A stretch of 64,000 nt of DNA from a virus (Duplodnaviria > Heunggongvirae > Uroviricota > Caudoviricetes). The translations under genes and the position numbers were made by a program. This document shows positions 4,154-26,636 of this stretch, in pieces (positions within the stretch are counted from its first letter, which is position 1; each line of letters begins with the position of its first letter). The notes below the pieces were generated by a model. That model saw nothing but the letters and a program-made list of their open reading frames with translations, was not told the DNA's origin and did no database searches. The stretch lies in the IMG/VR virus record IMGVR_UViG_2799113015_000003, positions 1-64,000 of that record. One strand, given 5' to 3'.

Positions 4154-4368
4154 GAACTAAGCAATACCGCATCACGCTGAAGATGGATGACGGATTCACG
4201 AATGAAGCTGAGGGGGAAGACCTTCCGCAGCTCGTCACCACCACCAACGCACTCGCGGCGAGACATGGCGGCGAAGACGTTCACGACTACTTAGACGAGA
4301 ACGGATCAATCATCTATACACGCAAGGGTAAGACAATCGGACGGGCTGACGTAACGCCAGTCATCTAA
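4150..4368 (+). CDS. hypothetical protein, ~72 aa (GTG start overlapping the preceding stop)
   Basis: In-frame GTG at 4150 in GTGA overlap with the stop of 3956..4153, preceded by AAGGGCAGGA. Confidence 0.35.
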   Translation: MRTKQYRITLKMDDGFTNEAEGEDLPQLVTTTNALAARHGGEDVHDYLDENGSIIYTRKGKTIGRADVTPVI

Positions 4369-4385
4369 CACATCTGAATACGGAG

Positions 4386-4432
4386 GAGCCGCAGCGGGAG
4401 TCATTCTCGTTGCGGCTCTGCTGTTTTCAGCA
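4386..4432 (+). terminator. putative intrinsic terminator
   Basis: Inverted repeat GAGCCGCAGCG...CGTTGCGGCTC followed by TGCTGTTTTCAG. Confidence 0.4.
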
Positions 4433-4475
4433 CACAGGGCATGGGACTCACGAACCCATGCCCTTTTTCTATGCC

Positions 4476-4490
4476 CAGAGGAAGGGAACG
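4476..4490 (+). promoter_or_regulatory. start-associated motif variant (CAGAGGAAGGGAACG)
   Basis: GGAAGGGA core retained; ATG at 4492. Confidence 0.45.
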
Positions 4491-4491
4491 C

Positions 4492-4959
4492 ATGTTATTG
4501 GAAGGTTGGACATCAACGCCGGTTGAATACGAACGCCTCACTCGCGCTGAGGTAGTCGAGCACGAGCGCTACTGGGCCGAGATGGTTCTCAAGGCGCGAA
4601 GCCTACGGCGCAAGTATGACCGCGCGGTATGGCTGAAGGACACAAAACGGGCTGAGAGCCTCGCAGAGGCCCTGAGATCCCTTGGCCCATCCATGTTGTA
4701 CGCCCACGGACGTTGGGAGCGTCACGGGCGCTGGAACCGGTACTACCAAGTACGTGGTGGCGCTGTACACACCACGCTGACATGCCGGTGCATCAACGGG
4801 GAGACGGTACTAAACCCGCTACCCCAATTCGCCGGTAGGTCAAGGAAGTTCATCGCAGATCGGTACAAGCTGTGCCGACACTGCGGGGACACCCACACGG
4901 GCGACATTCCTGCTGATCGAGCCTATCGGTCGTTCAAAGCCTACCTGCTCATTACCTAA
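4492..4959 (+). CDS. hypothetical protein with C-terminal Cys-rich (zinc-ribbon-like) region, 155 aa
   Basis: Start placed at the motif-associated ATG 4492 inside ORF 4441..4959; C-terminus carries CRCING...CRHCGDTH. Confidence 0.45.
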   Translation: MLLEGWTSTPVEYERLTRAEVVEHERYWAEMVLKARSLRRKYDRAVWLKDTKRAESLAEALRSLGPSMLYAHGRWERHGRWNRYYQVRGGAVHTTLTCRCINGETVLNPLPQFAGRSRKFIADRYKLCRHCGDTHTGDIPADRAYRSFKAYLLIT

Positions 4960-12051: not shown

Positions 12052-12127
12052 ATACCAATGCTATTGAGCGATTACGGGTTCATGTGGGTACGAAAAAGCC
12101 CCCAGCTTTCGCTGAGGGCTCTTCGAG

Positions 12128-12198
12128 TAGTCCATGCGGGAATCAAACCCGCACCAACACCTTGAGAGGGTGGTGTGCTCTCACTACACCAATGGACC
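12128..12198 (-). tRNA. tRNA-Glu (anticodon CTC)
   Basis: T-arm GCGGG/AATCAAA/CCCGC (reverse complement); 7-bp acceptor with G1-U72; anticodon loop CTCTCAA. Confidence 0.7.
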
Positions 12199-12204
12199 TT
12201 AGGG

Positions 12205-12543
12205 CTATTGCTCAACCCACTTGCCGGATTCACGAACCTCTGTCTTGAGGTTAACCGGCCACATATCACGCTCCACTTGGGCACGTTGTAGGTCTTCGCG
12301 GCCCACCTGACGTTTCACCCATAGCTGGAACTTTGGTGAGCTCGCCATGCGCCTGAACGCGGCCTGCTTGTTCTGCAGCTGGCTACGCTCCTCGCGCGAC
12401 TCACCCACCGCGCCAGAAGGCTCATGCGTAATCCGCACGCCCGTCTCGCGCTTGTTCTGGTTTTGACCGCCTTTGCCCCCAGATCGGAATGTGTCCACAC
12501 GACAATCCGAGAGGGTGACAGACAGTACCCGTTCTCTACTCAC
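12205..12543 (-). CDS. ArfB-like peptidyl-tRNA hydrolase (class I release-factor GGQ domain protein)
   Basis: FRSGGKGGQNQNKRETGVRITHEPSG matches the RF-1/ArfB GGQ catalytic loop (E. coli ArfB [22 protein letters not shown]); ~110 aa with a basic C-terminal tail, as in ArfB. Confidence 0.65.
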   Translation of the reverse strand: MSRERVLSVTLSDCRVDTFRSGGKGGQNQNKRETGVRITHEPSGAVGESREERSQLQNKQAAFRRMASSPKFQLWVKRQVGREDLQRAQVERDMWPVNLKTEVRESGKWVEQ

Positions 12544-12544
12544 G

Positions 12545-12618
12545 TCAAGTCGACCGGATTTGAACCGGCGTCCCCCGCCGTGACAGGGCGGTGCTTTAGA
12601 CCTCTAAGCTACGACTCG
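12545..12618 (-). tRNA. tRNA-Asp (anticodon GTC)
   Basis: Acceptor pairs 12546-52 with 12612-18; anticodon arm CCGCC/GTGACAG/GGCGG. Confidence 0.7.
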
Positions 12619-12675
12619 AAAGAACGTTTGCCCCCAGTGGTTTTCGAGGCCACCGGGGCAGGTACGAACAACCTG

Positions 12676-12750
12676 AGCCAACTTTCTGGGAATCAAACCC
12701 TGGAGCTGCTTGGCCAAAACTCCCGTGGAGACGGTGCGAATTGAACGCGA
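12676..12750 (-). tRNA. tRNA-like sequence, isotype undetermined
   Basis: T-arm-like CTGGG/AATCAAA/CCCTG at 12686-12702, but acceptor and anticodon stems could not be paired by hand. Confidence 0.3.
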
Positions 12751-12800
12751 CCACACCAATCTTGCAAGGATCGGTCGCCACCTTGGAACATGCGCCCCCA
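12726..12800 (-). tRNA. possible tRNA-Ala (anticodon TGC), poorly folding
   Basis: Anticodon arm CAATC/TTGCAAG/GATCG gives loop CTTGCAA; T-arm GTGCG/AATTGAA/CGCGA is imperfect and the acceptor was not resolved. Confidence 0.3.
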
Positions 12801-12869
12801 AGGCCCCCGTTTTGACAAGACTGGGTCTGAACTTGGACGGTTACCTCAACGGAGCCGACAACCCTGTAG

Positions 12870-12943
12870 GGCCTCATCGAGGTCTCGAACCCCGCGCCTC
12901 TTCGTTACTAAGGAAGTGCTCTAGCCGGATGAGCTAATGAGGC
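12870..12943 (-). tRNA. tRNA with anticodon AGT (Thr?)
   Basis: Perfect 7-bp acceptor 12871-77/12937-43, D-stem GCTC/GAGC and a good T-arm; anticodon loop TTAGTAA gives the unusual A34 anticodon AGU. Confidence 0.55.
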
Positions 12944-12992
12944 CTGTTGCATAGGCGTTTTGAACAGGTGCCCTTGCAAGTGGCCTGTGGCG

Positions 12993-13065
12993 TACCCAGT
13001 CGAGGAATCGAACCCCGCTTGGCTGGATGTAAGCCAGCTTTCGTCCCAGACTAACCAGGCATGAG
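12993..13065 (-). tRNA. possible tRNA-Val (anticodon TAC)
   Basis: T-arm CGAGG/AATCGAA/CCCCG and a perfect anticodon arm GCTGG/ATGTAAG/CCAGC; acceptor pairing not confirmed. Confidence 0.45.
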
Positions 13066-13140
13066 AACGAGTGACCAGATTCGAACTGGCACGACCTGTT
13101 TGGAAGACAGGGATGCTAAACCGTTAAACATCACACTCGC
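13066..13140 (-). tRNA. tRNA-Gly (anticodon TCC)
   Basis: Acceptor 13067-73/13134-40; anticodon arm CCTGT/TTGGAAG/ACAGG. Confidence 0.7.
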
Positions 13141-13144
13141 ATGG

Positions 13145-13212
13145 AGCGGCAGAGGTGACTCGAACACCCTTGCAGCGGCTTAGGAGGCCACGCACTTTCC
13201 GGAACTACCGCT
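13145..13212 (-). tRNA. possible tRNA-Arg (anticodon CCT), short or atypical D region
   Basis: T-arm AGGTG/ACTCGAA/CACCC; anticodon arm GCGGC/TTAGGAG/GCCAC; only ~68 nt between the acceptor halves. Confidence 0.4.
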
Positions 13213-13215
13213 TGG

Positions 13216-13287
13216 TAGGTTCGCACAGAATTGAACTGCGATTGCCGACGTATCAGGTCGGTGTCCTTACCATTGGACGACGAACCA
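13216..13287 (-). tRNA. tRNA-Ile (anticodon GAT)
   Basis: Acceptor 13217-23/13281-87 (6 of 7 pairs); anticodon arm CCGAC/GTATCAG/GTCGG. Confidence 0.65.
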
Positions 13288-13288
13288 G

Positions 13289-13360
13289 TGGGAGCACCAG
13301 GGGTCGAACCTGGGATTCATGGGTAAGAGCCAAGAGTTATAACCGCTTAACTATACTCCC
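13289..13360 (-). tRNA. tRNA-Lys (anticodon CTT)
   Basis: Perfect T-stem CCAGG/CCTGG; acceptor 13290-96/13354-60; anticodon loop CTCTTAC. Confidence 0.6.
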
Positions 13361-13361
13361 C

Positions 13362-13433
13362 TAGGGCGCAAGGGATTTGAACCCTCAACTCGTAGATTAA
13401 AAGTCTAGGGTGATGCCGTTTCACCAACGCCCA
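13362..13433 (-). tRNA. tRNA-Lys (anticodon TTT)
   Basis: T-arm AAGGG/ATTTGAA/CCCTC; anticodon loop CTTTTAA. Confidence 0.6.
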
Positions 13434-13434
13434 G

Positions 13435-13509
13435 TAGTCGGCGCGAGGATCGAACTCGCACACACCGAGGTTTGAGCTCGGCGGCTTTGCCAGGTTTGCC
13501 TAGCCGACC
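13435..13509 (-). tRNA. tRNA with anticodon CAA (Leu codon UUG) but class-I length
   Basis: Perfect T-stem GCGAG/CTCGC, acceptor 13436-42/13503-09, perfect anticodon stem CCGAG/CTCGG with loop CTCAAAC; only a 5-nt variable region (75 nt total). Confidence 0.55.
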
Positions 13510-13567
13510 ATGCTCAGCATTTAACCGACCCAAGGCGGTTGGCACCCGTGAGGGCTGTTTGAACCGG

Positions 13568-13641
13568 TACTCCAAGAGGGATTCGAACCCACAACCTCCA
13601 GGGTCTAAGCCTGTCGCCTCTGCCAGTTGGGCTATTGGAGC
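13568..13641 (-). tRNA. tRNA with anticodon TAG (Leu codon CUA) but class-I length
   Basis: Acceptor 13569-75/13635-41; anticodon loop CTTAGAC; 74 nt with a short variable region. Confidence 0.5.
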
Positions 13642-13698
13642 TTGGTGCCGATATTGCCGCGTCGGCTTTACGGTGACTCCTACTCACCGCGCGCGTCG

Positions 13699-13770
13699 AG
13701 ACGAAGGCCGGGATCGAACCGGCGTGGGTCAGGGTTGCAGCCTGCCAGCTAGCCACTCACTCACTTCGCC
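13699..13770 (-). tRNA. tRNA-Cys (anticodon GCA)
   Basis: Perfect T-stem GCCGG/CCGGC; acceptor 13700-06/13764-70; anticodon loop CTGCAAC. Confidence 0.65.
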
Positions 13771-13778
13771 TTAAGCCG

Positions 13779-13943
13779 CTATTCTGCGGCGGGTGCTGCC
13801 TTCTTCGCGGGTGCCTTCTTGGCTACCGGCTTCTCTTCCACTGCGTAGTGGAAGTCCTCAAGGGCATCCATACGATCAATCAGGTCGTTTACCGCCTTGA
13901 CGATGTCGATATGGGCGATGCCCGTGCGCAGCTTGTCAGTCAT
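13779..13943 (-). CDS. small lysine/alanine-rich protein, 54 aa
   Basis: ORF MTDKLRTGIAHIDIVKAVNDL...KKAPAKKAAPAAE directly downstream of the HNH gene (ATGACTGA junction); below the ORF-track size cutoff. Confidence 0.25.
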   Translation of the reverse strand: MTDKLRTGIAHIDIVKAVNDLIDRMDALEDFHYAVEEKPVAKKAPAKKAAPAAE

Positions 13944-14337
13944 TGGTCGCCTCTGCTAGTCGTTTTCTGTAGTCGCGCTTACGATTTCTTGCTGCTAACC
14001 GACAGAGGCCGCAGCGGCACCCCCATCGGTCATACATTGTGCTTGTCCCATGGCGGGTTGGCCGCGTGCCATGCGTGAGCGGCATTTGGGCTGTGGTCTT
14101 GTCGCGATGACACCTCTTACAGAGGGGTTGACACTTCCTCAGCTCTGCCTGGAGTCGCGGCTCGGCCCAACTCCATATTCGGTGAGATGATTTCTCCATC
14201 GGATCGATGTGGTCGATCTCGAGTTGCTCAGTCGCACCGCAACTCACACACTTTCTGCCCTCAAAGTACCTAGCACGCCTTGCGGCCTGCCGTAGTCGTT
14301 CGTATTCTCGTCGGCGGACAGGATCTTTGATTGGCAT
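13936..14337 (-). CDS. HNH endonuclease (paralog 1) embedded in the tRNA array
   Basis: CVSCGATEQLEIDHIDP...CKRCH...GCRCGLCR HNH/zinc-finger motifs; start set at internal ATG 14337 (AGGGG RBS) because the longer ORF would overlap tRNA-Arg. Confidence 0.7.
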   Translation of the reverse strand: MPIKDPVRRREYERLRQAARRARYFEGRKCVSCGATEQLEIDHIDPMEKSSHRIWSWAEPRLQAELRKCQPLCKRCHRDKTTAQMPLTHGTRPTRHGTSTMYDRWGCRCGLCRLAARNRKRDYRKRLAEATND

Positions 14338-14432
14338 GTAACCCCTGTTTATATTGGGGTGACCGGACGGTACTGACCCGTCATCCTCGCGGTCACATCG
14401 CGAGATTCTCAACCTTTGAACTACGGTCACAG

Positions 14433-14507
14433 ACCCGTTGGCAGGATTCGAACCTGCATGCGTTGCGCCTTCGTAGGGCGGTGGGCGCTCCATTGCCCAA
14501 CAACGAG
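14433..14507 (-). tRNA. tRNA-Arg (anticodon ACG)
   Basis: Perfect T-stem GCAGG/CCTGC; acceptor 14434-40/14501-07; anticodon loop CTACGAA with A34, as expected for bacterial Arg-ACG. Confidence 0.7.
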
Positions 14508-14517
14508 AGCAGGCGGT

Positions 14518-14536
14518 TTAACGTGGAGTGCCCAGC
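14518..14536. repeat. 19-nt repeat TTAACGTGGAGTGCCCAGC (copy 1)
   Basis: Identical apart from one base to 14788-14806; lies 11 nt beyond the 5' end of tRNA-Arg on the tRNA strand. Confidence 0.5.
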
Positions 14537-14645
14537 ACGGAGCAGTTTTTCGTGATGTCTCAACACGGATGGTTCTTCCAGTTGTGAACCAACAACATTC
14601 ATGAGCCAGTTTCTACCCCAGCCGTGTACTGGCAACCCTCGTCCG

Positions 14646-14720
14646 TGGCGGGTACCGGATTTGAACCGGTGGTCTCAAGGTTATGAGCCTTGCGAGATGG
14701 CCGAGCTTCTCTAACCCGCT
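14646..14720 (-). tRNA. tRNA-Met (anticodon CAT)
   Basis: Perfect T-stem ACCGG/CCGGT and anticodon stem CAAGG/CCTTG with loop CTCATAA; 1-72 position is an A-C mismatch. Confidence 0.65.
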
Positions 14721-14787
14721 AAGTATGAGTGACTCATTCCGGCAGGACAGTTCGTCGCCTGCCGTATCCGCGCGAGTCAACGCGGCC

Positions 14788-14806
14788 TTTTACGTGGAGT
14801 GCCCAG
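14788..14806. repeat. 19-nt repeat TTTACGTGGAGTGCCCAGC (copy 2)
   Basis: Second copy, 68 nt beyond the 5' end of tRNA-Met. Confidence 0.5.
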
Positions 14807-14846
14807 CTTTTCACCAGTAGCTGTGGAACCTGGTTTCCCTTACACG

Positions 14847-14920
14847 CCGACTCTCCCCGAATCGAACGGGGGCGCACCGGGCTTCAACCGGTCGCTCTTA
14901 CCTAACTGAGCTAAGAGTCG
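14847..14920 (-). tRNA. tRNA-Phe (anticodon GAA)
   Basis: Perfect T-stem CCCCG/CGGGG, perfect acceptor 14848-54/14914-20 and anticodon stem ACCGG/CCGGT with loop TTGAAGC. Confidence 0.7.
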
Positions 14921-15214
14921 ATTGTTAGAGGCTGAGAGTACACCCGCTATCGAGAACCTTTCGCAGCATTATGGATTCGCTGCTTCTCCAGGCCATCCCT
15001 GACCTAGTTCTCACGCCTGGTCCGTTACCGTGAACCACTCGTTATGCCGAAAGCTACTCTGCGGCTTTCCCTTCGCGATGAGATGGCCGTCTCACTGCTG
15101 CAGTACTTGCCTACAAACCGCACTCACCTTGCGGGACTATTGTGCGGCCCAGATTCCCGAGGGTCTGGGATTAAGGCGCTTTTGCTCCTCGGCAGGGGAA
15201 GGACTTTTGCTTTT

Positions 15215-15290
15215 TATTGACGACGGGACTTGAACCCGCACATCCAGTTTCCAATAACTGGTGACCTACCGTTGGTCTACGCCATTCTCG
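15215..15290 (-). other. degenerate tRNA-like element
   Basis: Good T-arm ACGGG/ACTTGAA/CCCGC and an anticodon-like hairpin CCAGT/TTCCAATA/ACTGG with an 8-nt loop; no matching acceptor stem found. Confidence 0.25.
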
Positions 15291-15740
15291 CAGCGGAGAA
15301 TGATTTGACTAGAGACGTGCTTCCCCATGAAGTTCCGCACCCTTTTGGGGCACAGAATGCTTCACGCCTCTCGTGCTTTCGCCTGGCGGGGCTAATTACA
15401 CTCTCTCTCAACCGCATTGCGAGCCGTCGCCCGACGCGAGATCGATCATGGAACACGCCCTTGCTTGCGAGGCTCGGACTCAGTTCCTTCCGTTCCACAG
15501 GGCGCTTGTTCGATAGCCTTTTCACACGCACGTACGTGATGGTGTCCTCAGCACTTTGCCGTTGGACGGGGCGTAACTCGCAACCTGGCAGCCATCACTG
15601 ACTGCTCAAGGATTGGATTGCATGGATTGCCCTTGCGGGTGGTGGGTTGTCACCCCACCTTTCACCACCTTGCGGTGGCTTATGGGCCATGCCCCGAATG
15701 TCTTAACTATATCTCCCACAACAGAGTTCGTGTGGGTGAG

Positions 15741-15822
15741 CGGAGAGGCAGGTATTCGAAACCTACTGCGAACAGCGCTCCGGTTAGCAACCGGGCCTAG
15801 TCACCTAACTAGTTGCGCTCTC
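15741..15822 (-). tRNA. tRNA-Ser (anticodon GCT), class II
   Basis: T-arm CAGGT/ATTCGAA/ACCTA; anticodon loop TTGCTAA; ~13-nt variable arm; 82 nt. Confidence 0.55.
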
Positions 15823-15903
15823 CAAAATCCACCCCTTCGGCGTCGACACTGGACTCGACGCACCTGTATTCACTCTTAGCCATGGCCAGGCGGGTGGAGA
15901 ACG

Positions 15904-15988
15904 AGGAAGGTAGAGGAATCGAACCCCCGAGTTTTCAGGCTCGCCCCGGTATTCGACGCCGGTTGCCGACCATTCAGCGGTGCCTTCC
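15904..15988 (-). tRNA. tRNA-Ser (anticodon CGA), class II
   Basis: T-arm AGAGG/AATCGAA/CCCCC with G-U pairs; long variable arm; anticodon loop GTCGAAT; 85 nt. Confidence 0.5.
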
Positions 15989-16068
15989 ATATGCCCCATT
16001 TTGATAACGCAACTGGAGCGGCTGCGGGCAGTCAACTCATGGCAGGTACCTACCGGTTGACTCAAAAG

Positions 16069-16140
16069 CTGAAGACCCTGGATTCGAACCAAGAACTGCG
16101 ACGTTCAGAGCGTCGTGTGTTGCCGTTACACCAATCTTCA
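16069..16140 (-). tRNA. tRNA-Gln (anticodon CTG)
   Basis: Acceptor 16070-76/16134-40; anticodon arm CGACG/TTCAGAG/CGTCG. Confidence 0.7.
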
Positions 16141-16217
16141 AGGGCGATTTGACCGTATGCATCCGATCGGGAGCCGCAACCCAGCAGATCATTTGCCCCG
16201 GCCTGCCAGCGGAGTCG

Positions 16218-16299
16218 TACGGACTGATGGATTCGAACCACCACACTCGAAAGCTCTGATTTACAGTCAGAGATCCCTCGCCAATAGGAGAGAGTCCGC
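16218..16299 (-). tRNA. tRNA-Tyr (anticodon GTA), class II
   Basis: Acceptor 16219-25/16293-99; anticodon arm TCTGA/TTTACAG/TCAGA; 11-nt variable arm; 82 nt. Confidence 0.7.
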
Positions 16300-16302
16300 A
16301 TT

Positions 16303-16680
16303 TCACGATGCACGTTGTCGGCGCTTCGCGTTTCGGGCCCACAGGCGACACAGCCCGCATCGGCAGCCGTGTCGTTGGTACATTCTGCACGTGCCATGTC
16401 GGTAGGACTTGAAACCGATGGTGATCTCGGTTTGCGCGATAGTCTTCGCCTTGTGGCAGGCACGACACAGGGCTTGACACTTATCCAATTCTGCAATGCG
16501 TCTGCCTGCCGACCAGGACCAAATCGCGTTCGTAACCTTCACTGTTGGATCAATGTGATCCAGTTCAAGGTCACCCCCTGAACCGCAAGAGGCACATACC
16601 CTTCCGGCGAACCACTCGTCACGTCGACCTGCTCGCCACTCTCGTTGGTACCGGCGCTTCACTTCACCTGTAAGTGTCAT
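16303..16680 (-). CDS. HNH endonuclease (paralog 2) embedded in the tRNA array
   Basis: CASCGSGGDLELDHIDP...CRACH...YRHGTCRMYQRHGCRCGLCR aligns with the 13936..14337 product; the ORF is flanked tightly by tRNA-Tyr and tRNA-Asn. Confidence 0.75.
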   Translation of the reverse strand: MTLTGEVKRRYQREWRAGRRDEWFAGRVCASCGSGGDLELDHIDPTVKVTNAIWSWSAGRRIAELDKCQALCRACHKAKTIAQTEITIGFKSYRHGTCRMYQRHGCRCGLCRLWARNAKRRQRAS

Positions 16681-16684
16681 AACG

Positions 16685-16758
16685 CTGGCTTGGCAGGATT
16701 CGAACCTACACCTCGCGAGTTAACAGCTCGCTGCTCTACCAATTGAGCTACAGGCCAA
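16685..16758 (-). tRNA. tRNA-Asn (anticodon GTT)
   Basis: T-arm GCAGG/ATTCGAA/CCTAC; anticodon arm GCGAG/TTAACAG/CTCGC. Confidence 0.65.
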
Positions 16759-16876
16759 GAGCGAGGGTGGCCAGTGTCAGCGCGCTTTCTGACCTGTGCG
16801 ACCCTCTTGCCCGTCCTGCTTAGAGATGAGACGGAGCCGAAAACACCCGTACGGTCATCATACGTGATGACCAACG

Positions 16877-16951
16877 TCTGCCAGGCGCGATTTGAACACG
16901 CGATCTCCTGGACCCAAACCAGGCGGGATGGCCAAACTTCCCTACAAGCAG
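16877..16951 (-). tRNA. tRNA-Pro (anticodon TGG)
   Basis: T-arm GCGCG/ATTTGAA/CACGC; perfect anticodon stem CCTGG/CCAGG with loop TTTGGGT (G37); perfect D-stem GGGA/TCCC. Confidence 0.6.
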
Positions 16952-17194
16952 ATGATGGACGACACGGCCCAGGTACGGCACCTCAGGTCAGATCCTTTTT
17001 ATCGGAACCTACTGCGGGATTACCCTGCCATCCATATGGCCACCGGCATCCCGATGGCCGCGCGGAGATGTCTCTCCACATTCCCCGTACGACCGACGCT
17101 TTCCTGGAGCTACCTGTACTTGCGCATGTGGTCTGACAGCCGGGGCCACACTGACTAACGAGGATGTTCTCCCTTTGCACTACCGGCAGCCTAC

Positions 17195-17260
17195 GCCGCC
17201 AGTCGGGGCTCGAACCCGAATCTTCCTCTCGTGGAGCTGCCCGGAATTGAACCGGGATGT
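17195..17260 (-). other. two adjacent perfect T-arm-like hairpins (tRNA-like fragment or structured ncRNA)
   Basis: TCGGG/GCTCGAA/CCCGA at 17203-19 and CCCGG/AATTGAA/CCGGG at 17240-56, with no resolvable acceptor or anticodon arms. Confidence 0.2.
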
Positions 17261-17642
17261 TACGTGACTTGTCACAGTCTTCTACGTGCGTAGTCCACCG
17301 ATTGGGTCGGTTGGGGTGGACGCCTGTCCGAATCGAGACCTCAGACTCTCGACCGATCTTCCAGCACAGTTTGTCGCCTGAGAGCTGGTCATTGCGAGTT
17401 CCCCGTATTCGCGACGGTGAATTGGTACACGGAACGGGTAAACCGTTGTACCCCACCGGACTACGCAGCTAGGGCGTAGTCGGACTGAGCAGAAGCTGCA
17501 GTTATTGTGGTTGCACTGTTACGGGCGTTGCGGACCCGGCACGCTTCTCAGTAAGTTGACACGCAATCGAATACCTGTCAGCCCCATTGAAGTATCTATA
17601 TCTCTATGGAGTTTTCAAATGTCATGCCACACAGAGGCATTG

Positions 17643-17713
17643 CACGGGCGGAGAGAATCGAACTCCCACTAACGGGTTTGGAATCCGTTGTCCTGCCTTT
17701 GGACCACGCCCAT
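17643..17713 (-). tRNA. tRNA-Trp (anticodon CCA)
   Basis: T-arm GAGAG/AATCGAA/CTCCC; acceptor 17644-50/17707-13; anticodon loop TTCCAAA. Confidence 0.65.
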
Positions 17714-22527: not shown

Positions 22528-22749
22528 CTATTTTCGGCCGAAACCCGTGTACGGATCGACCTTCTCACTCAGGTAGTTCAGGAGATGGAGACCCGTAATA
22601 GCCACTGCGGCATGACAAATAGCCCAACCAAGACGAGAGCTCAGCCACCTATCAAACTGGTGACTGAGCTTCTCATCTTCGGGCGCAAAGTATTCAACGG
22701 CGGCGATGTACACCACCAGGCCGATCCAGCCCTTTTCTGAATAGCGCAT
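22528..22749 (-). CDS. small membrane protein, 73 aa
   Basis: Two hydrophobic helices (GLVVYIAAVEYF; WAICHAAVAITGLHLL). Confidence 0.4.
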   Translation of the reverse strand: MRYSEKGWIGLVVYIAAVEYFAPEDEKLSHQFDRWLSSRLGWAICHAAVAITGLHLLNYLSEKVDPYTGFGRK

Positions 22750-23120
22750 TAGTCGCGGAACTTCTCCAACCCCTTCGGGCCCTTGAAACGATCATCGAAC
22801 TCGGGGAAGTTCTTGCGGAAGTACATCAATGCCAGGGCATGGAAGATCACGGCGGTGAGGTGCTCCAAGCCGGTTCCGCCCTCGCCGTTGTCAAACTCTT
22901 CGCCATTCCACCACGCCATAGCGTGACGCATCATGGCGTCGTACGACTTAGACCACTCATAGCCCTTGGCCCAGTTATGGTCTGAGTACTTCTTCGCGCC
23001 CTTGCCGTACAGCTCCGCAACCTCTAGGAGCTCACGCACCGGGAGCAGGGACATGCGGACGTCGTTGCCCGCCTTCTGCCCTCCCGTGGAGGAGGTGGTC
23101 ATCACTTCCCCGACACTCAC
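22749..23120 (-). CDS. dATP/dGTP diphosphohydrolase-like (MazG-like) protein
   Basis: LYGKGAKKYSDHNWAKGYEWSKSYDAMMRHAMAW resembles the small nucleotide pyrophosphohydrolase domain common in actinophages; tentative. Confidence 0.4.
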   Translation of the reverse strand: MSVGEVMTTSSTGGQKAGNDVRMSLLPVRELLEVAELYGKGAKKYSDHNWAKGYEWSKSYDAMMRHAMAWWNGEEFDNGEGGTGLEHLTAVIFHALALMYFRKNFPEFDDRFKGPKGLEKFRD

Positions 23121-23314
23121 GCGCCAAGCTCCCTTGCTGCTTCGTTCAGAAAATCGTTGGCCCGGTCGTGGATCCCACGCAGGACGTCCTTGTCAACCTC
23201 GATAAGTTCATCGCGCTCATACACAGAGCTGAACTCGATTCCGTCTTCGAGGTGTTCGATTGCGATCCGGCGCGCGACCTCAGTGATCGCTTCTGGGGTC
23301 ACTTCTTCACCCAC
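23117..23314 (-). CDS. hypothetical acidic protein, 65 aa
   Basis: ORF. Confidence 0.4.
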   Translation of the reverse strand: MGEEVTPEAITEVARRIAIEHLEDGIEFSSVYERDELIEVDKDVLRGIHDRANDFLNEAARELGA

Positions 23315-23727
23315 ACTGTGATGGTCTTCTCCTGTGAGACAACCTCTTCAGTGGGTCCGTCGTAGTAGCCACCATTGAAGGAGGCATACCACCCATCACG
23401 ACGGAAGTAGCGAACCTCGCCATTATCGTCGGTAATCTTGAAGACAAACCAGTACTGGTCGCCTTGCCCTTCGCCTCCGAAGGTATCCTCAAGCTCGATA
23501 CGCCCGAAGCCTTCGAAGTACTTGTAATCAATCTCCGACTCGGGGATCGGAGCGAATTTGCGGGTGTCCGGGTTCCACCGCTCCTTGCTCACCCCGATGT
23601 ATTCCTCGAACTCGTGCCAGCCGGTGATGTGCTCAGTCTTCGGCTCGGTCTCTTTGTACGGAATGTAGGTCACATCCCAGCCGGTATCCTGTACCAGCTC
23701 TTCGATGTCCTCGACGGTGTAGCTCAC
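23299..23727 (-). CDS. MSYT-family paralog 1 (unknown function)
   Basis: Shares GGEGxGDxxWxxFKxTxxxGxxRxFRRxGxYASFxGGxYDGPTxEV with the next two genes. Confidence 0.5.
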   Translation of the reverse strand: MSYTVEDIEELVQDTGWDVTYIPYKETEPKTEHITGWHEFEEYIGVSKERWNPDTRKFAPIPESEIDYKYFEGFGRIELEDTFGGEGQGDQYWFVFKITDDNGEVRYFRRDGWYASFNGGYYDGPTEEVVSQEKTITVWVKK

Positions 23728-24059
23728 TTGATCTCCTCATATACGTTCATAAGCTTCTGCGTGACCCTTACTTCCCTTGTAGGGCCGTCATAGTCGCCGC
23801 CCACGAAGGATGCGTAGTAGCCACTGCGTCGGAAGTGGCGCTCAGTGCCATCAAGGCTGGTGACCTTGAAGATCATCCAAAGGTCTTCACCCTTTCCTTC
23901 GCCGCCGTACTGATCGATAAAGGTCGCTCGCCCAATGCCAGGGATGACTACCTCTTCATCCCCGTACTCGAGCAGATCTTCGAACTCGAACCAGTTACCG
24001 GACCACTCGTTTTCTTCGTCTTCGATCGCCTTGTTGAGTTCCTTGATTGTGTAGCTCAT
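23724..24059 (-). CDS. MSYT-family paralog 2 (unknown function)
   Basis: N-terminal MSYTIKEL and the same C-terminal motif block; ATGA overlaps with its neighbours. Confidence 0.5.
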   Translation of the reverse strand: MSYTIKELNKAIEDEENEWSGNWFEFEDLLEYGDEEVVIPGIGRATFIDQYGGEGKGEDLWMIFKVTSLDGTERHFRRSGYYASFVGGDYDGPTREVRVTQKLMNVYEEIK

Positions 24060-24391
24060 CAGATAGACCTCCAGTCAGCCTTCTTTACGTGCGCGGCCTC
24101 TACCTCGAATGTGTCTCCACCCCAGTGGATTCCGTCATAGGAAGTGGCATAACCACTGTGCTTGAAATGGCGAATGCCCGAGAAACTCCTCACCTCGAAA
24201 ACGAAGTACACCTGTGTACTCACGCCCTGTTCCTTCTCTGGGGTGTGGGCCTCAACAAGGGTGGCTATGCCGATGCCCGGAAGACCTACAGAGGCACCCA
24301 TCTGCAGAAGGTTGTAGAGCCCTTCCCAGGCGATCCCGGGTGCTACGAAGGTCGTAGCGAGATCGGTGATGTCGTCAACGGTGTAACTCAT
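24059..24391 (-). CDS. MSYT-family paralog 3 (divergent)
   Basis: N-terminal MSYTVDDI and conserved HFKHSGYATSYDGIHWGGDTFEV. Confidence 0.45.
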   Translation of the reverse strand: MSYTVDDITDLATTFVAPGIAWEGLYNLLQMGASVGLPGIGIATLVEAHTPEKEQGVSTQVYFVFEVRSFSGIRHFKHSGYATSYDGIHWGGDTFEVEAAHVKKADWRSI

Positions 24392-25194
24392 ACGGTTTCC
24401 AATCGCTTCAGAAAGTGGCTGTTGTCTTTGTGCCGCTGCACGTAATCGAGATCCGGTTTACGGAACTCGTCAAAGTGGCTGACGATGAACTGAGCGCTCC
24501 TCCCCTTCGTCAGGGAGGTGATCGTGCGGCGCAGGGCCCACTGGTATGCCGCACCCGGTGAGTACTTGTAGTCGTTGGGGATCACCAACCGCTCCAGTGC
24601 GGTCACGTAGATCTCCTCGCGGAACATCTGCACAATGCGCTCGTGAGGCATCGCCCAGACCTTCGCCATGTCCATCTGGACCGTCTTGCCGTCCTTCAGG
24701 CACTCGTCATAGATGGGCTTCCCGGGCGTGTAGGCCACGGAGTGGTGGATGGAGTCATGGTCGTAGCTGCGCTTCACCGCGTCGGTGAAGAACGCATCGG
24801 ACTCCTGGGTGAGATCCACCTGCTTCTTGCCATGGTGGTCTTCCCACACCCTGTAGAGCACGTCATGCCATTCGGGGATGAGCTTGGCTCCCCTGCGCTC
24901 GAGGTCCAGCAGGTCGGCCATGTGCTTACCCCAGGAGTTGTTCTTCAGCTCCCAGTAGGCGTGCGAGTGCTTGATTGTGTACAGCTGATCTGGGCTTGCG
25001 AATACGGACGTCTTGTCCGTCAACTCCAGAATCTCGTACAACCGGGGATCCCAGAATGCGTCGCCTCGGATAGATGGGTCCGCGAGCGAGGTGTTTGGCT
25101 CGTTCGTGAAGAGGTCGACATCCTTCGGTTCCCGCCAGTCGGGAAACCAGTGCTTCGCGGCTACCGAGCCGACGATGAGCGTGGTCAAATCCAT
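24388..25194 (-). CDS. nucleotidyltransferase-fold protein (Pol-beta superfamily-like)
   Basis: N-terminal LIVGSVAAKHWFPDWREPKDVDLFT fits the hG[GS]x9-13Dh[DE]h minimal NTase motif. Confidence 0.4.
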   Translation of the reverse strand: MDLTTLIVGSVAAKHWFPDWREPKDVDLFTNEPNTSLADPSIRGDAFWDPRLYEILELTDKTSVFASPDQLYTIKHSHAYWELKNNSWGKHMADLLDLERRGAKLIPEWHDVLYRVWEDHHGKKQVDLTQESDAFFTDAVKRSYDHDSIHHSVAYTPGKPIYDECLKDGKTVQMDMAKVWAMPHERIVQMFREEIYVTALERLVIPNDYKYSPGAAYQWALRRTITSLTKGRSAQFIVSHFDEFRKPDLDYVQRHKDNSHFLKRLETV

Positions 25195-25382
25195 GCCTTC
25201 TGTCGTCGGATGCGATGGATGCGACGGCGCACGCGGGACCGCCTCGGGTTGTAGTCGCCGCGACCCATAGCGAGGCTGCGCTTCAGCGCGCGGCCCGGGA
25301 TGCGAGACCAGCGTTCTGGCGCATCCTCTGAGTCGGCTGGAACCATCGGATTCTCTGGCGTTTCCACAGTCTCGTCACTCAC
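25185..25382 (-). CDS. hypothetical basic protein, 65 aa
   Basis: ORF. Confidence 0.3.
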   Translation of the reverse strand: MSDETVETPENPMVPADSEDAPERWSRIPGRALKRSLAMGRGDYNPRRSRVRRRIHRIRRQKAWI

Positions 25383-25858
25383 TTTGCCTTCATCCCCGCA
25401 TTCAAATAACCCTGGACCTCGCCGGGGTGAACGACCTTCATTCCCAGCGCTGTTGCGACATGGTGCTCAAGCTGAGCACCCCGTGACTTGTTCCAACCTG
25501 GCAGCAGGACAATGTGCGTGCACTCAACCAACTCGCGCAGATCGCGGCGTAGATACCAGTCCCAAGAGACACTGGGATCTGCCGGGTGAAGCTCGTGCGG
25601 GGAAACAACATTGAGGCCCGCATCACGGAACCGTTTGGCAATCTCAGCGAAGGCTGGGTAGTTGTACTCGGGGTAACCGGTCATCGGTCCCGCGATATAG
25701 AACCGCTTATGCTCGGGCTTCTCCGATAGCGCCCGAATCGTATCCCGCTGTGTCGCAATGATTTCCGCCATCGTCTGAATGCTGCCATTCAGCGATGCCG
25801 TTGCGCCCCAGTCGTTTCCATCCATGAAAATAATCGTATCGACGGGATTCGGGTTCAT
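25379..25858 (-). CDS. nucleoside 2-deoxyribosyltransferase-like protein
   Basis: FYIAGPMTGYPEYNYPAFAEIAKRF matches the NDT/DNPH1 nucleoside-binding signature. Confidence 0.5.
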   Translation of the reverse strand: MNPNPVDTIIFMDGNDWGATASLNGSIQTMAEIIATQRDTIRALSEKPEHKRFYIAGPMTGYPEYNYPAFAEIAKRFRDAGLNVVSPHELHPADPSVSWDWYLRRDLRELVECTHIVLLPGWNKSRGAQLEHHVATALGMKVVHPGEVQGYLNAGMKAK

Positions 25859-25994: not shown

Positions 25995-26636
25995 CTACAG
26001 GCCCAGTTCGCGACATACCAAGCTAAAGAGCTGGCTGAAGAAGTTCGATGACTTCCCAATGCGTGCAGCCAGATCCGTGGTTGGAACGGAAGGGTTGGCA
26101 ATGATCGCGTTCAACACGTCCAAGCATGCTGTGCGATTCTGGTGCCCGACACGGCGATGGAACACAGCGAAGTCGGGACGAGCTGTCACCAGCTCATGAG
26201 CCGCACGCGCCTTTTCCAGGCGGTTGCGGTAGCGAGTATCCACACCGTTGTGAGCGTGGAGAGCTTCGCCAGTCAGGGCCTCTACCGGCATGGTGATCTG
26301 CTTGATGTCAGGCCACTCGGGGCGCATCGCTGCGCGTTCAGCTGGAGTGGTCCCACCCCAGATACCGAATTCCTCGCCATTATCCAGGGCCCAAGTACGG
26401 CATTTGTCCAAAACGGGGCAGCGTGAGCACGTGGCCTTTGCGCGCTGCTCGGCGTAGGCCACCATTTCGGTAGCCAACTCCTGAGTGACTCCATCCTCGA
26501 CCAGCTCTTCCACGGTGAGAAAGTGCGACTCCTGGTCGTCAGGATCGCATACAGCTTTGCTGCGCCAATCAAGATCCAGGTCGCTGGCCGTAGGTGGGCG
26601 CTCAATCATAGCGGTCATTTGGTTGTATCCCTTCAA
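25995..26636 (-). CDS. WhiB-like transcription factor with ~100-aa C-terminal extension
   Basis: Four Cys (AVCDPDD...ATCSRCPVLDKC) and G[IV]WGG (FGIWGG), diagnostic of WhiB Fe-S regulators. Confidence 0.7.
   Translation of the reverse strand: MKGYNQMTAMIERPPTASDLDLDWRSKAVCDPDDQESHFLTVEELVEDGVTQELATEMVAYAEQRAKATCSRCPVLDKCRTWALDNGEEFGIWGGTTPAERAAMRPEWPDIKQITMPVEALTGEALHAHNGVDTRYRNRLEKARAAHELVTARPDFAVFHRRVGHQNRTACLDVLNAIIANPSVPTTDLAARIGKSSNFFSQLFSLVCRELGL

Follow-up and report, generated by a model that had tools for sequence, protein, structure and literature searches.

A nucleotidyltransferase-like gene and a tandem array of small acidic paralogues form an obligate two-family module in phages of Actinobacteria

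Introduction

Mycobacteria depend heavily on tRNA-targeting toxins, MenT nucleotidyltransferases included, and Mycobacterium abscessus prophages and their lytic relatives are mined for phage therapy. Here we describe a module of one nucleotidyltransferase-like gene and three small tandem genes in a 64,000-nucleotide (nt) stretch of viral DNA, hereafter the window (positions 1 to 64,000 of IMG/VR record IMGVR_UViG_2799113015_000003). Its closest described counterparts are AbiE (AbiEi/AbiEii) and MenAT (MenA/MenT; DUF1814, PF08843), which likewise encode a pol-beta nucleotidyltransferase of ~260 amino acids (aa) with the signature hG[GS]-x14/15-R-xxx-DhD, followed by C-terminal motifs centred on Lys (candidate motifs in the module), and likewise place this enzyme beside one or more small cognate proteins in a single operon. 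MenAT systems are carried by Actinobacteria (Mycobacterium), the host group of the module. In M. tuberculosis, MenT toxins attach nucleotides to the acceptor ends of tRNAs, under the control of diverse small antitoxins of the MenA type (PMC7450476, PMC10435456, PMC11375011).

A sequence-only reading of the window had drawn attention to three consecutive genes of 110, 111 and 142 aa whose products all start with MSYT, and had interpreted them as a paralogue expansion inside an early-gene block, of the kind that often marks rapidly evolving host-interaction or anti-defence functions. The coordinates it gave proved exact, with all three genes on the minus strand. We name them p1, p2 and p3 in transcription order and refer to the 268-aa gene upstream of p1 as the enzyme:

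Enzyme: 24388-25194, minus strand; 268 aa, Pfam DUF7277 and DUF7275 (PF23942 and PF23940), immediately upstream of p1
p1: 24059-24391, minus strand; 110 aa, ATG start, begins MSYTVDDI, divergent first-slot family member
p2: 23724-24059, minus strand; 111 aa, ATG start, begins MSYTIKEL, canonical member with a GGEGKGE loop, FRRSGYYASFVGGDYDG
p3: 23299-23727, minus strand; 142 aa, GTG start, begins MSYTVEDI, canonical member

Strict linkage of the enzyme and the small proteins

To establish how far the two families travel together, we retrieved loci from either side. In all 24 loci found via the small proteins (prophiT49-2, prophiGD54-2, WXIN, Smoothie, BillNye, nine IMG/VR contigs, and L059, L065-L067, L071 and L074-L078), a DUF7275 gene lies just upstream on the same strand. 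Among the 38 loci found via DUF7275 alone (L015-L050, L072 and L073), 37 carry one to five small-protein family members downstream; in the one remaining locus the contig stops 684 bp past the enzyme gene. Clustering of open reading frames (ORFs) from 31 diverse loci identified the enzyme and small-protein families as the only universal ones, each present in 31/31; the next commonest neighbour cluster occurs in 10/31, and the recurring clusters are replication or recombination genes of one lineage. A degenerate-DNA motif scan for further loci mostly returned known contigs, and none of 120 enzyme homologues is fused to a partner.

The enzyme and its one to five small proteins constitute an obligate two-family module, encoded on the same strand, co-transcribed and largely translationally coupled. 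This linkage, absent from the sequence-only reading, likely shifts the role of the small proteins from free-standing host-interaction factors to partners of the enzyme. A comparison of copy number across phages, which that reading had proposed, revealed variation from one to five:

One copy: L033, L035, L049, L067
Three copies: all MabI-type prophages, L075, L077
Four copies: BillNye, L021, L022, L028, L065, L066
Five copies: WXIN, L038, L074

RNA ligase and polynucleotide kinase-phosphatase (Pnkp) form the classical phage tRNA-repair pair. RNA-repair genes of this kind (Pnkp, Rnl1- or Rnl2-type RNA ligase) occur in the flanks of about nine distinct contigs (BillNye, L013/L041, L039, L040, L046, L066, WXIN, L077 and L078). 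Genes for tRNAs lie within 5 kb of the module in ~13 contigs, roughly one-third of the scanned loci, and directly follow the array in Smoothie-like Gordonia phages. A Ro60/TROVE gene is among the neighbours of the module in L071. In two unrelated metagenomic phage contigs, RNA ligase and Pnkp genes directly flank the module (L077, 5359-7917; L078, 1523-6006), and L078 additionally carries Fic and RlaP genes.

The array genes are tandem paralogues of one small acidic protein family

Alignment bears out the shared C-terminal core described earlier, GGEGxG...FxFK...G..R.FR..GYYAS..G...DG.T.EV. In p1 the GGEGxG loop is altered to TPEKEQG with a 3-residue insertion, but this protein still has its GYxxS turn and C-terminal EV; p3 carries an insertion of ~30 residues in its variable N-terminal half. 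Pairwise BLASTP similarity lies far past chance (E values of 7e-23 for p2/p3, 3e-12 for p2/p1 and 5e-6 for p3/p1), and p1-p3 are true tandem paralogues. A profile hidden Markov model (HMM) of the family, run over the 64-kb window, detected only these three genes (3e-24 for p1, 2e-41 for p2 and 3e-40 for p3). All three products also match two PHROG families over nearly their full length, with E values, from best to weakest, of 5.5e-34, 1.5e-31 and 7.7e-12 for phrog_8206 and of 1.9e-20, 3.9e-19 and 1.5e-9 for phrog_18295.

The genes had been described as linked by ATGA overlaps. Overlap and translational coupling hold at the junctions, and ATGA is found where the enzyme stop overlaps the p1 start; the p1/p2 junction is instead TGATG with a 1-nt overlap, and p2/p3 is GTGA with a 4-nt overlap that sets the GTG start of p3 over the p2 stop. 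Shine-Dalgarno sequences are strong for p2 (GGAGG) and p3 (GAGGAG), where they lie 5-8 nt upstream, and weak for p1 (GGAAA). Because an [A/G]TGA stop-start overlap requires codon 2 to begin with A, such overlaps may partly explain the conserved 'MS' start; serine codon 2 is AGY in all three genes. No promoter-like or terminator-like sites were found inside the block on the coding strand, which places p1-p3 within one long leftward operon.

Scans of p1-p3 against Pfam, NCBIfam and PADLOC gave no significant match, and a PDB sequence search with the small-protein profile returned only a chance match to intimin (E 1). An exhaustive profile search of 1.84 billion representatives recovered 1,877 clusters at E <= 1e-3, including 440 at E <= 1e-10. 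About one-fifth of the best family matches start with MSYT, and others with MTYT or MSFT. Neither a Pfam domain nor an informative name is attached to any of the family matches, and the source names of 10 diverse members are all 'hypothetical'. The named sources are exclusively Actinobacteria or their phages (Mycobacteroides, Nocardia, Micromonospora, Gordonia and Streptomyces phages). Variation in architecture is confined to tandem self-fusions (P0008, P0035, P0087, P0114, P0132, P0150 and P0153) and acidic N-terminal extensions; fusions to known domains are absent among 432 word-index matches and the 150 best representatives.

Members are strongly acidic, with a median isoelectric point (pI) of 4.38 and 99% of 155 members below pI 5; the array proteins have pI values of 4.40 (p2), 4.40 (p3) and 5.14 (p1). 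In an alignment of 115 sequences (p2 numbering), a single residue is invariant, Ser84 in the GYYAS motif, and W23, G43, G52, G53, G57, G80, G87, G92, E96 and V97 are nearly so. The core formed by G43, GG52-53, G57, G80, S84, G87, G92 and E96-V97 is complete in p2 and p3; p1 lacks G52/G53 and keeps the aligned equivalents of G43, G57, G80, S84, G87, G92 and E96-V97. Collectively, these proteins represent a large, unnamed family of strongly acidic alpha+beta proteins of ~100-150 aa.

Predicted structure of p2

Structure prediction, another check proposed by the sequence-only reading, was run on p2. With the 115-sequence alignment, AlphaFold2 produced a confident model (predicted local distance difference test score, pLDDT, 95.1; predicted template modelling score, pTM, 0.84), which we used in place of the mediocre model (pLDDT 71) obtained from a shallower 8-sequence alignment. 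The model comprises two helices (5-12, 23-32) and six antiparallel strands (36-39, 43-51, 59-68, 73-83, 87-89, 94-97). By topology, the GGEGxGD loop (52-58) and the S84/DG turn (84-92) appear to share one end of the sheet, so that the conserved residues would form one pole of the molecule.

A BFVD fold search with the small-protein model retrieved uncharacterised family members only. No match to PADLOC entries, anti-CRISPR proteins or sponge-like structures was obtained, and comparison with the solved sponge folds Tad1, Tad2 and Acb2 revealed no structural similarity. The family fold is thus predicted with confidence yet unmatched.

The upstream enzyme resembles pol-beta nucleotidyltransferases

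The enzyme carries the motif VGS-x14-R-xxx-DVD (V8-G9-S10, R21-E-P-K-D25-V-D27), which corresponds to the pol-beta nucleotidyltransferase pattern hG[GS]x(n)DhD. A DUF7275 protein search gave 852 matches overall; across 26 chosen homologues, which are 54-83% identical to the window enzyme, G9-S10, R21, D25-x-D27, K75, S77-H78, K90-H91-xx-D94 and H146-D147 are invariant, and a conserved D/E at position ~43 is a candidate third carboxylate. Since the GS, DxD and third-carboxylate set is conserved, the enzyme is probably catalytically active.

Dy et al. (PMC3985639) described an Arg placed four residues ahead of the first Asp as specific to AbiEii/DUF1814 proteins, whose motif is hG[G/S]x15DhD with a spacer of 15. 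The window enzyme has Arg at that position (R21) and a spacer of 14, not 15. In its C-terminal part, the invariant K75 lies in TIKxSHAYWEL and is followed by the invariant K90-H91-x-x-D94, a spacing similar to that of AbiEii motifs III (a Lys in hydrophobic surroundings) and IV (+DxxD), with His in the position of an AbiEii Asp. Six of the 26 homologues match the AbiEii profile PF08843 at E<1, and two of the homologues tested pass its gathering cut-off of 22.5 (25.1 and 23.2 bits). Both are collinear with the profile: the N-terminus falls on positions 19-43 of the model, and residues 66-151 fall on positions 130-217 (P0200). These sequence features suggest a divergent relative of the AbiEii/MenT nucleotidyltransferases, and we do not call it a member. 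PDB searches with the enzyme, as a single sequence and as a profile, gave no match, and a literature search for DUF7275 found no paper.

An 'HD-domain' assignment for DUF7275, raised by its H..HD motifs, had no database support and is not claimed. Two DUF7275 homologues (P0172 and P0178; 420 aa) carry an in-frame HNH_3 endonuclease insertion of ~150 aa in mid-enzyme, and in L071 a free-standing HNH gene (4166-4597) lies between the enzyme and the array. HNH genes in the module may represent homing-endonuclease or intein-like invasion.

The three copies are old and individually maintained

Each of p1-p3 is nearest to the copy occupying the same slot in other M. abscessus prophages. Beyond these prophages, the closest relative of p1 occupies slot 1 of WXIN, a distant Omega-like phage, and those of p2 and p3 are canonical copies from WXIN, Gordonia phages and L022. 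Copies that share a genome are far less alike than copies that share a slot. This same-slot orthology across phages indicates that the duplications are older than these phage lineages.

Ratios of nonsynonymous to synonymous substitution rates (dN/dS) among orthologues, with neighbouring genes for comparison, were as follows:

p1, p2, p3: 0.07-0.15 overall (p1 0.08-0.15; p2 0.10-0.15; p3 0.07-0.14)
Nucleotidyltransferase: about 0.2
WhiB: 0.03-0.14
DUF4406: 0.4-0.6

The array genes are therefore old, individually maintained copies under purifying selection, with dN/dS at or under the level of the neighbouring genes, and the proposal of a rapidly evolving expansion is contradicted by both the positional orthology and the dN/dS values. 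Tandem paralogues in an early block need not imply rapid arms-race evolution.

Positional maintenance coexists with local replacement. In three IMG/VR contigs of M. abscessus-type prophages (L010, L011 and L012), some slots are filled by members only 33-47% identical to those of the window, while the enzyme and flanking genes are still 80-90% identical; the L010 array has four copies. By these sequence comparisons, array slots appear to undergo cassette-like exchange and turnover.

Prophage setting and neighbouring genes

Over the array region, identity is 94% to Mycobacterium phage prophiT49-2 and 87% to both prophi86-1 and prophiGD54-2, which identifies the window, on sequence grounds, as a cluster MabI prophage of M. 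abscessus. The prophiT49-2 and prophiGD54-2 records contain the same three genes, each annotated as a hypothetical protein. MabI prophages are arranged like cluster M mycobacteriophages, with ~21 tRNAs and a transfer-messenger RNA (tmRNA), and genes 57-133 of prophiGD54-2 are predicted to be early lytic (PMC8092301). The orthologues of p1-p3 are prophiGD54-2 genes 85-87, in agreement with the early-gene placement proposed from the sequence.

The window itself has 21 tRNAs and a tmRNA (tag AASAQSDYALAA) at 12127-17713 on the minus strand, typical of cluster MabI and cluster M-like phages; one ARAGORN tRNA call (15215-15286) has an abnormal 2-base anticodon. Further genes around the module are:

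22749-23120, minus strand: 123-aa protein consisting solely of the N-terminal domain of dATP/dGTP diphosphohydrolase (PF18909, MazG-like), two genes downstream of the array
25379-25858, minus strand: DUF4406 (nucleoside 2-deoxyribosyltransferase-like) gene, two genes upstream of the module
25995-26636, minus strand: unusually long WhiB-family protein of 213 aa with a weak C-terminal HTH_24 match
36570-37433, plus strand: 288-aa ORF with a Pfam RlaP match (E 7.5e-31), 'RNA repair pathway DNA polymerase beta family'

The PF18909 gene recurs near the module in the Plantactinospora contig L073, probably a prophage, and is not universally linked to the module. The DUF4406 gene, with the highest dN/dS range listed above and 45-70% identity among related prophages, diverges far more than any neighbour. 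Related prophages have a second WhiB gene further upstream. The RlaP ORF is a second nucleotidyltransferase in the prophage, unrelated to that of the array, with homologues in WXIN, L031 and L078.

Proposed role and alternative explanations

While the conservation of the module is solid, its function we infer. Our preferred reading, held tentatively and with somewhat less than even confidence, is that p1-p3 are non-catalytic partner subunits, regulators or adaptors, of an early-lytic nucleotidyltransferase. The small proteins would dock on the enzyme via their conserved beta-sheet pole (the GGEGxGD loop with the GYYAS-xDG-xWDG turns), and the variable N-terminal helical half would either restrain the enzyme, in an antitoxin-like manner, or steer it to different targets as an adaptor would. 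Such restraint or targeting would act during early lytic growth. The target would most likely be RNA 3' ends such as those of tRNA, a substrate proposed because of the MenT analogy and the frequent RNA-repair and tRNA neighbours.

Several observations weigh against this interpretation. The gene order is enzyme-first, the reverse of AbiE and MenAT operons, and the small proteins share neither sequence nor fold with AbiEi or MenA antitoxins. Enzyme identity exceeds 50% across hosts, compared with 20-45% for the partners, and this gap disfavours a tightly co-evolving toxin-antitoxin pair; the presence of several non-redundant copies is likewise hard to explain by simple inhibition. The enzyme's motif IV is KHxxD, with His replacing an Asp of the AbiEii +DxxD, and the window enzyme itself falls below threshold with PF08843, giving no match. 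The RNA-repair association is partial, as another lineage has a PD-(D/E)XK nuclease, primase and endonuclease VII beside the module, and WXIN has only 2 tRNAs, so the module tracks tRNA-rich phages only in part. We treat the RNA-repair and tRNA association, a raw count of neighbours, as a lead.

A fuller version of the partner-subunit reading casts the module as a hitherto unrecognised phage system, a MenT-like RNA/tRNA 3'-end nucleotidyltransferase programmed in its activity or target choice by one to five interchangeable acidic partners in early infection. It would serve either to disable host tRNAs while the phage tRNA set takes over translation, or, together with Pnkp and RNA ligase, to mend or protect tRNAs that host toxins such as MenT and VapC attack. 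We consider this complete scenario quite improbable as specified. The module as a whole may also have an anti-defence or host-takeover role.

One rival idea is that the paralogues act on their own in host interaction or anti-defence, perhaps as acidic mimics of nucleic acid that block host DNA/RNA-binding defence proteins, and are co-inherited with the enzyme without acting on it. Their extreme acidity (pI about 4.4), small size, predicted early expression (PMC8092301), copy number of 1-5 and slot swaps in L010-L012 are typical of phage counter-defence genes. However, near-perfect linkage to DUF7275 persists among very distant phages that share no other conserved neighbours, which would be hard to account for if the two families were functionally independent; dN/dS is low rather than raised, and matches to PADLOC entries, anti-CRISPR proteins or sponge-like structures are lacking. 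We regard this explanation as unlikely. The small proteins might instead be substrates, nucleotidylylated by the enzyme (e.g., at Ser84) and thereby switched on or off as effectors whose variable N-terminal halves meet different host targets. Pol-beta-fold nucleotidyltransferases that AMPylate proteins are known (GlnE, DrrA, MntA), and the logic would be analogous to that of the MntA-HepT type VII toxin-antitoxin system. Ser84, the sole invariant residue among 115 diverse members, sits by model topology in a turn beside the other conserved loops, and a conserved enzyme with several divergent, core-conserved partners suits an enzyme-substrate family. Yet the invariant Ser could simply be structural, a turn cap, and in the characterised AbiEii/MenT relatives the modified molecule is tRNA or the enzyme itself, not a partner protein (PMC7450476, PMC11375011), so that we rate a substrate role as decidedly unlikely.

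The same conserved pole could alternatively be a pocket, made of the GGEGxGD loop and the FRxxGYYAS strand with its many aromatic residues and Arg; the small proteins would then serve as a receptor or sponge for a nucleotide-derived compound that the enzyme makes or uses. A Gly-rich loop with a cluster of conserved Arg, Tyr and Trp at one sheet pole, and a nucleotidyltransferase as partner, are consistent with this; the acidic character of the proteins, the degenerate p1 loop and the absence of matching folds argue against it and leave it very unlikely. Comparative data, finally, refute an artefact, the sequence-only reading's own concern that the ORFs might be pieces of one frameshifted gene (or else chance ORFs). 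Natural two-domain fusions do exist elsewhere (P0008, P0035, P0087), but prophiT49-2 and prophiGD54-2 are annotated with these three ORFs as separate genes, and the three recur in related prophage contigs and independently sequenced phages. Each has a start codon and a Shine-Dalgarno sequence of its own, aligns over its whole length to homologues with a single domain, forms a complete domain by HMM and structure model, and is under purifying selection, which makes the probability of an artefact negligible.

The module is widespread, with enzyme clusters numbering in the hundreds and partner clusters about 1,900, and its description provides context for two Pfam domains of unknown function (DUF7275 and DUF7277) and for a large small-protein family. 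If the partner-subunit reading is true, the module would offer a new handle on how large actinophages reprogramme or protect translation.

Comparison with known systems

The catalogue entries phrog_8206 and phrog_18295 represent the same family as the array proteins, with function unknown; they give neither structure nor context, and the DUF7275 linkage and tandem arrays are unrecorded there. NTF2-like and cystatin-like alpha+beta roll folds are also among the closest known systems.

Unlike AbiE and MenAT, the module is phage-encoded within an early lytic operon, places the enzyme gene first and has one to five paralogous partners rather than one. These partners, acidic proteins of alpha+beta type, have no relationship to the AbiEi winged helix-turn-helix (wHTH)/COG5340 antitoxins or to MenA1/MenA3, and so do not correspond to the AbiEi-type (wHTH + COG5340) or MenA-type antitoxin that those systems encode upstream of the toxin. 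The enzyme differs from AbiEii/MenT in that its C-terminal half belongs to a separate Pfam family (DUF7275), with KHxxD as motif IV and a score below the PF08843 threshold.

Polymorphic-toxin/immunity loci resemble the module in coupling an enzyme of toxin ancestry to a same-strand tandem array of variable length with slot turnover. In contrast to those loci, the enzyme of the module has no secretion or delivery domain and is highly conserved rather than polymorphic, and its array combines stable positional orthology with purifying selection instead of orphan-immunity decay.

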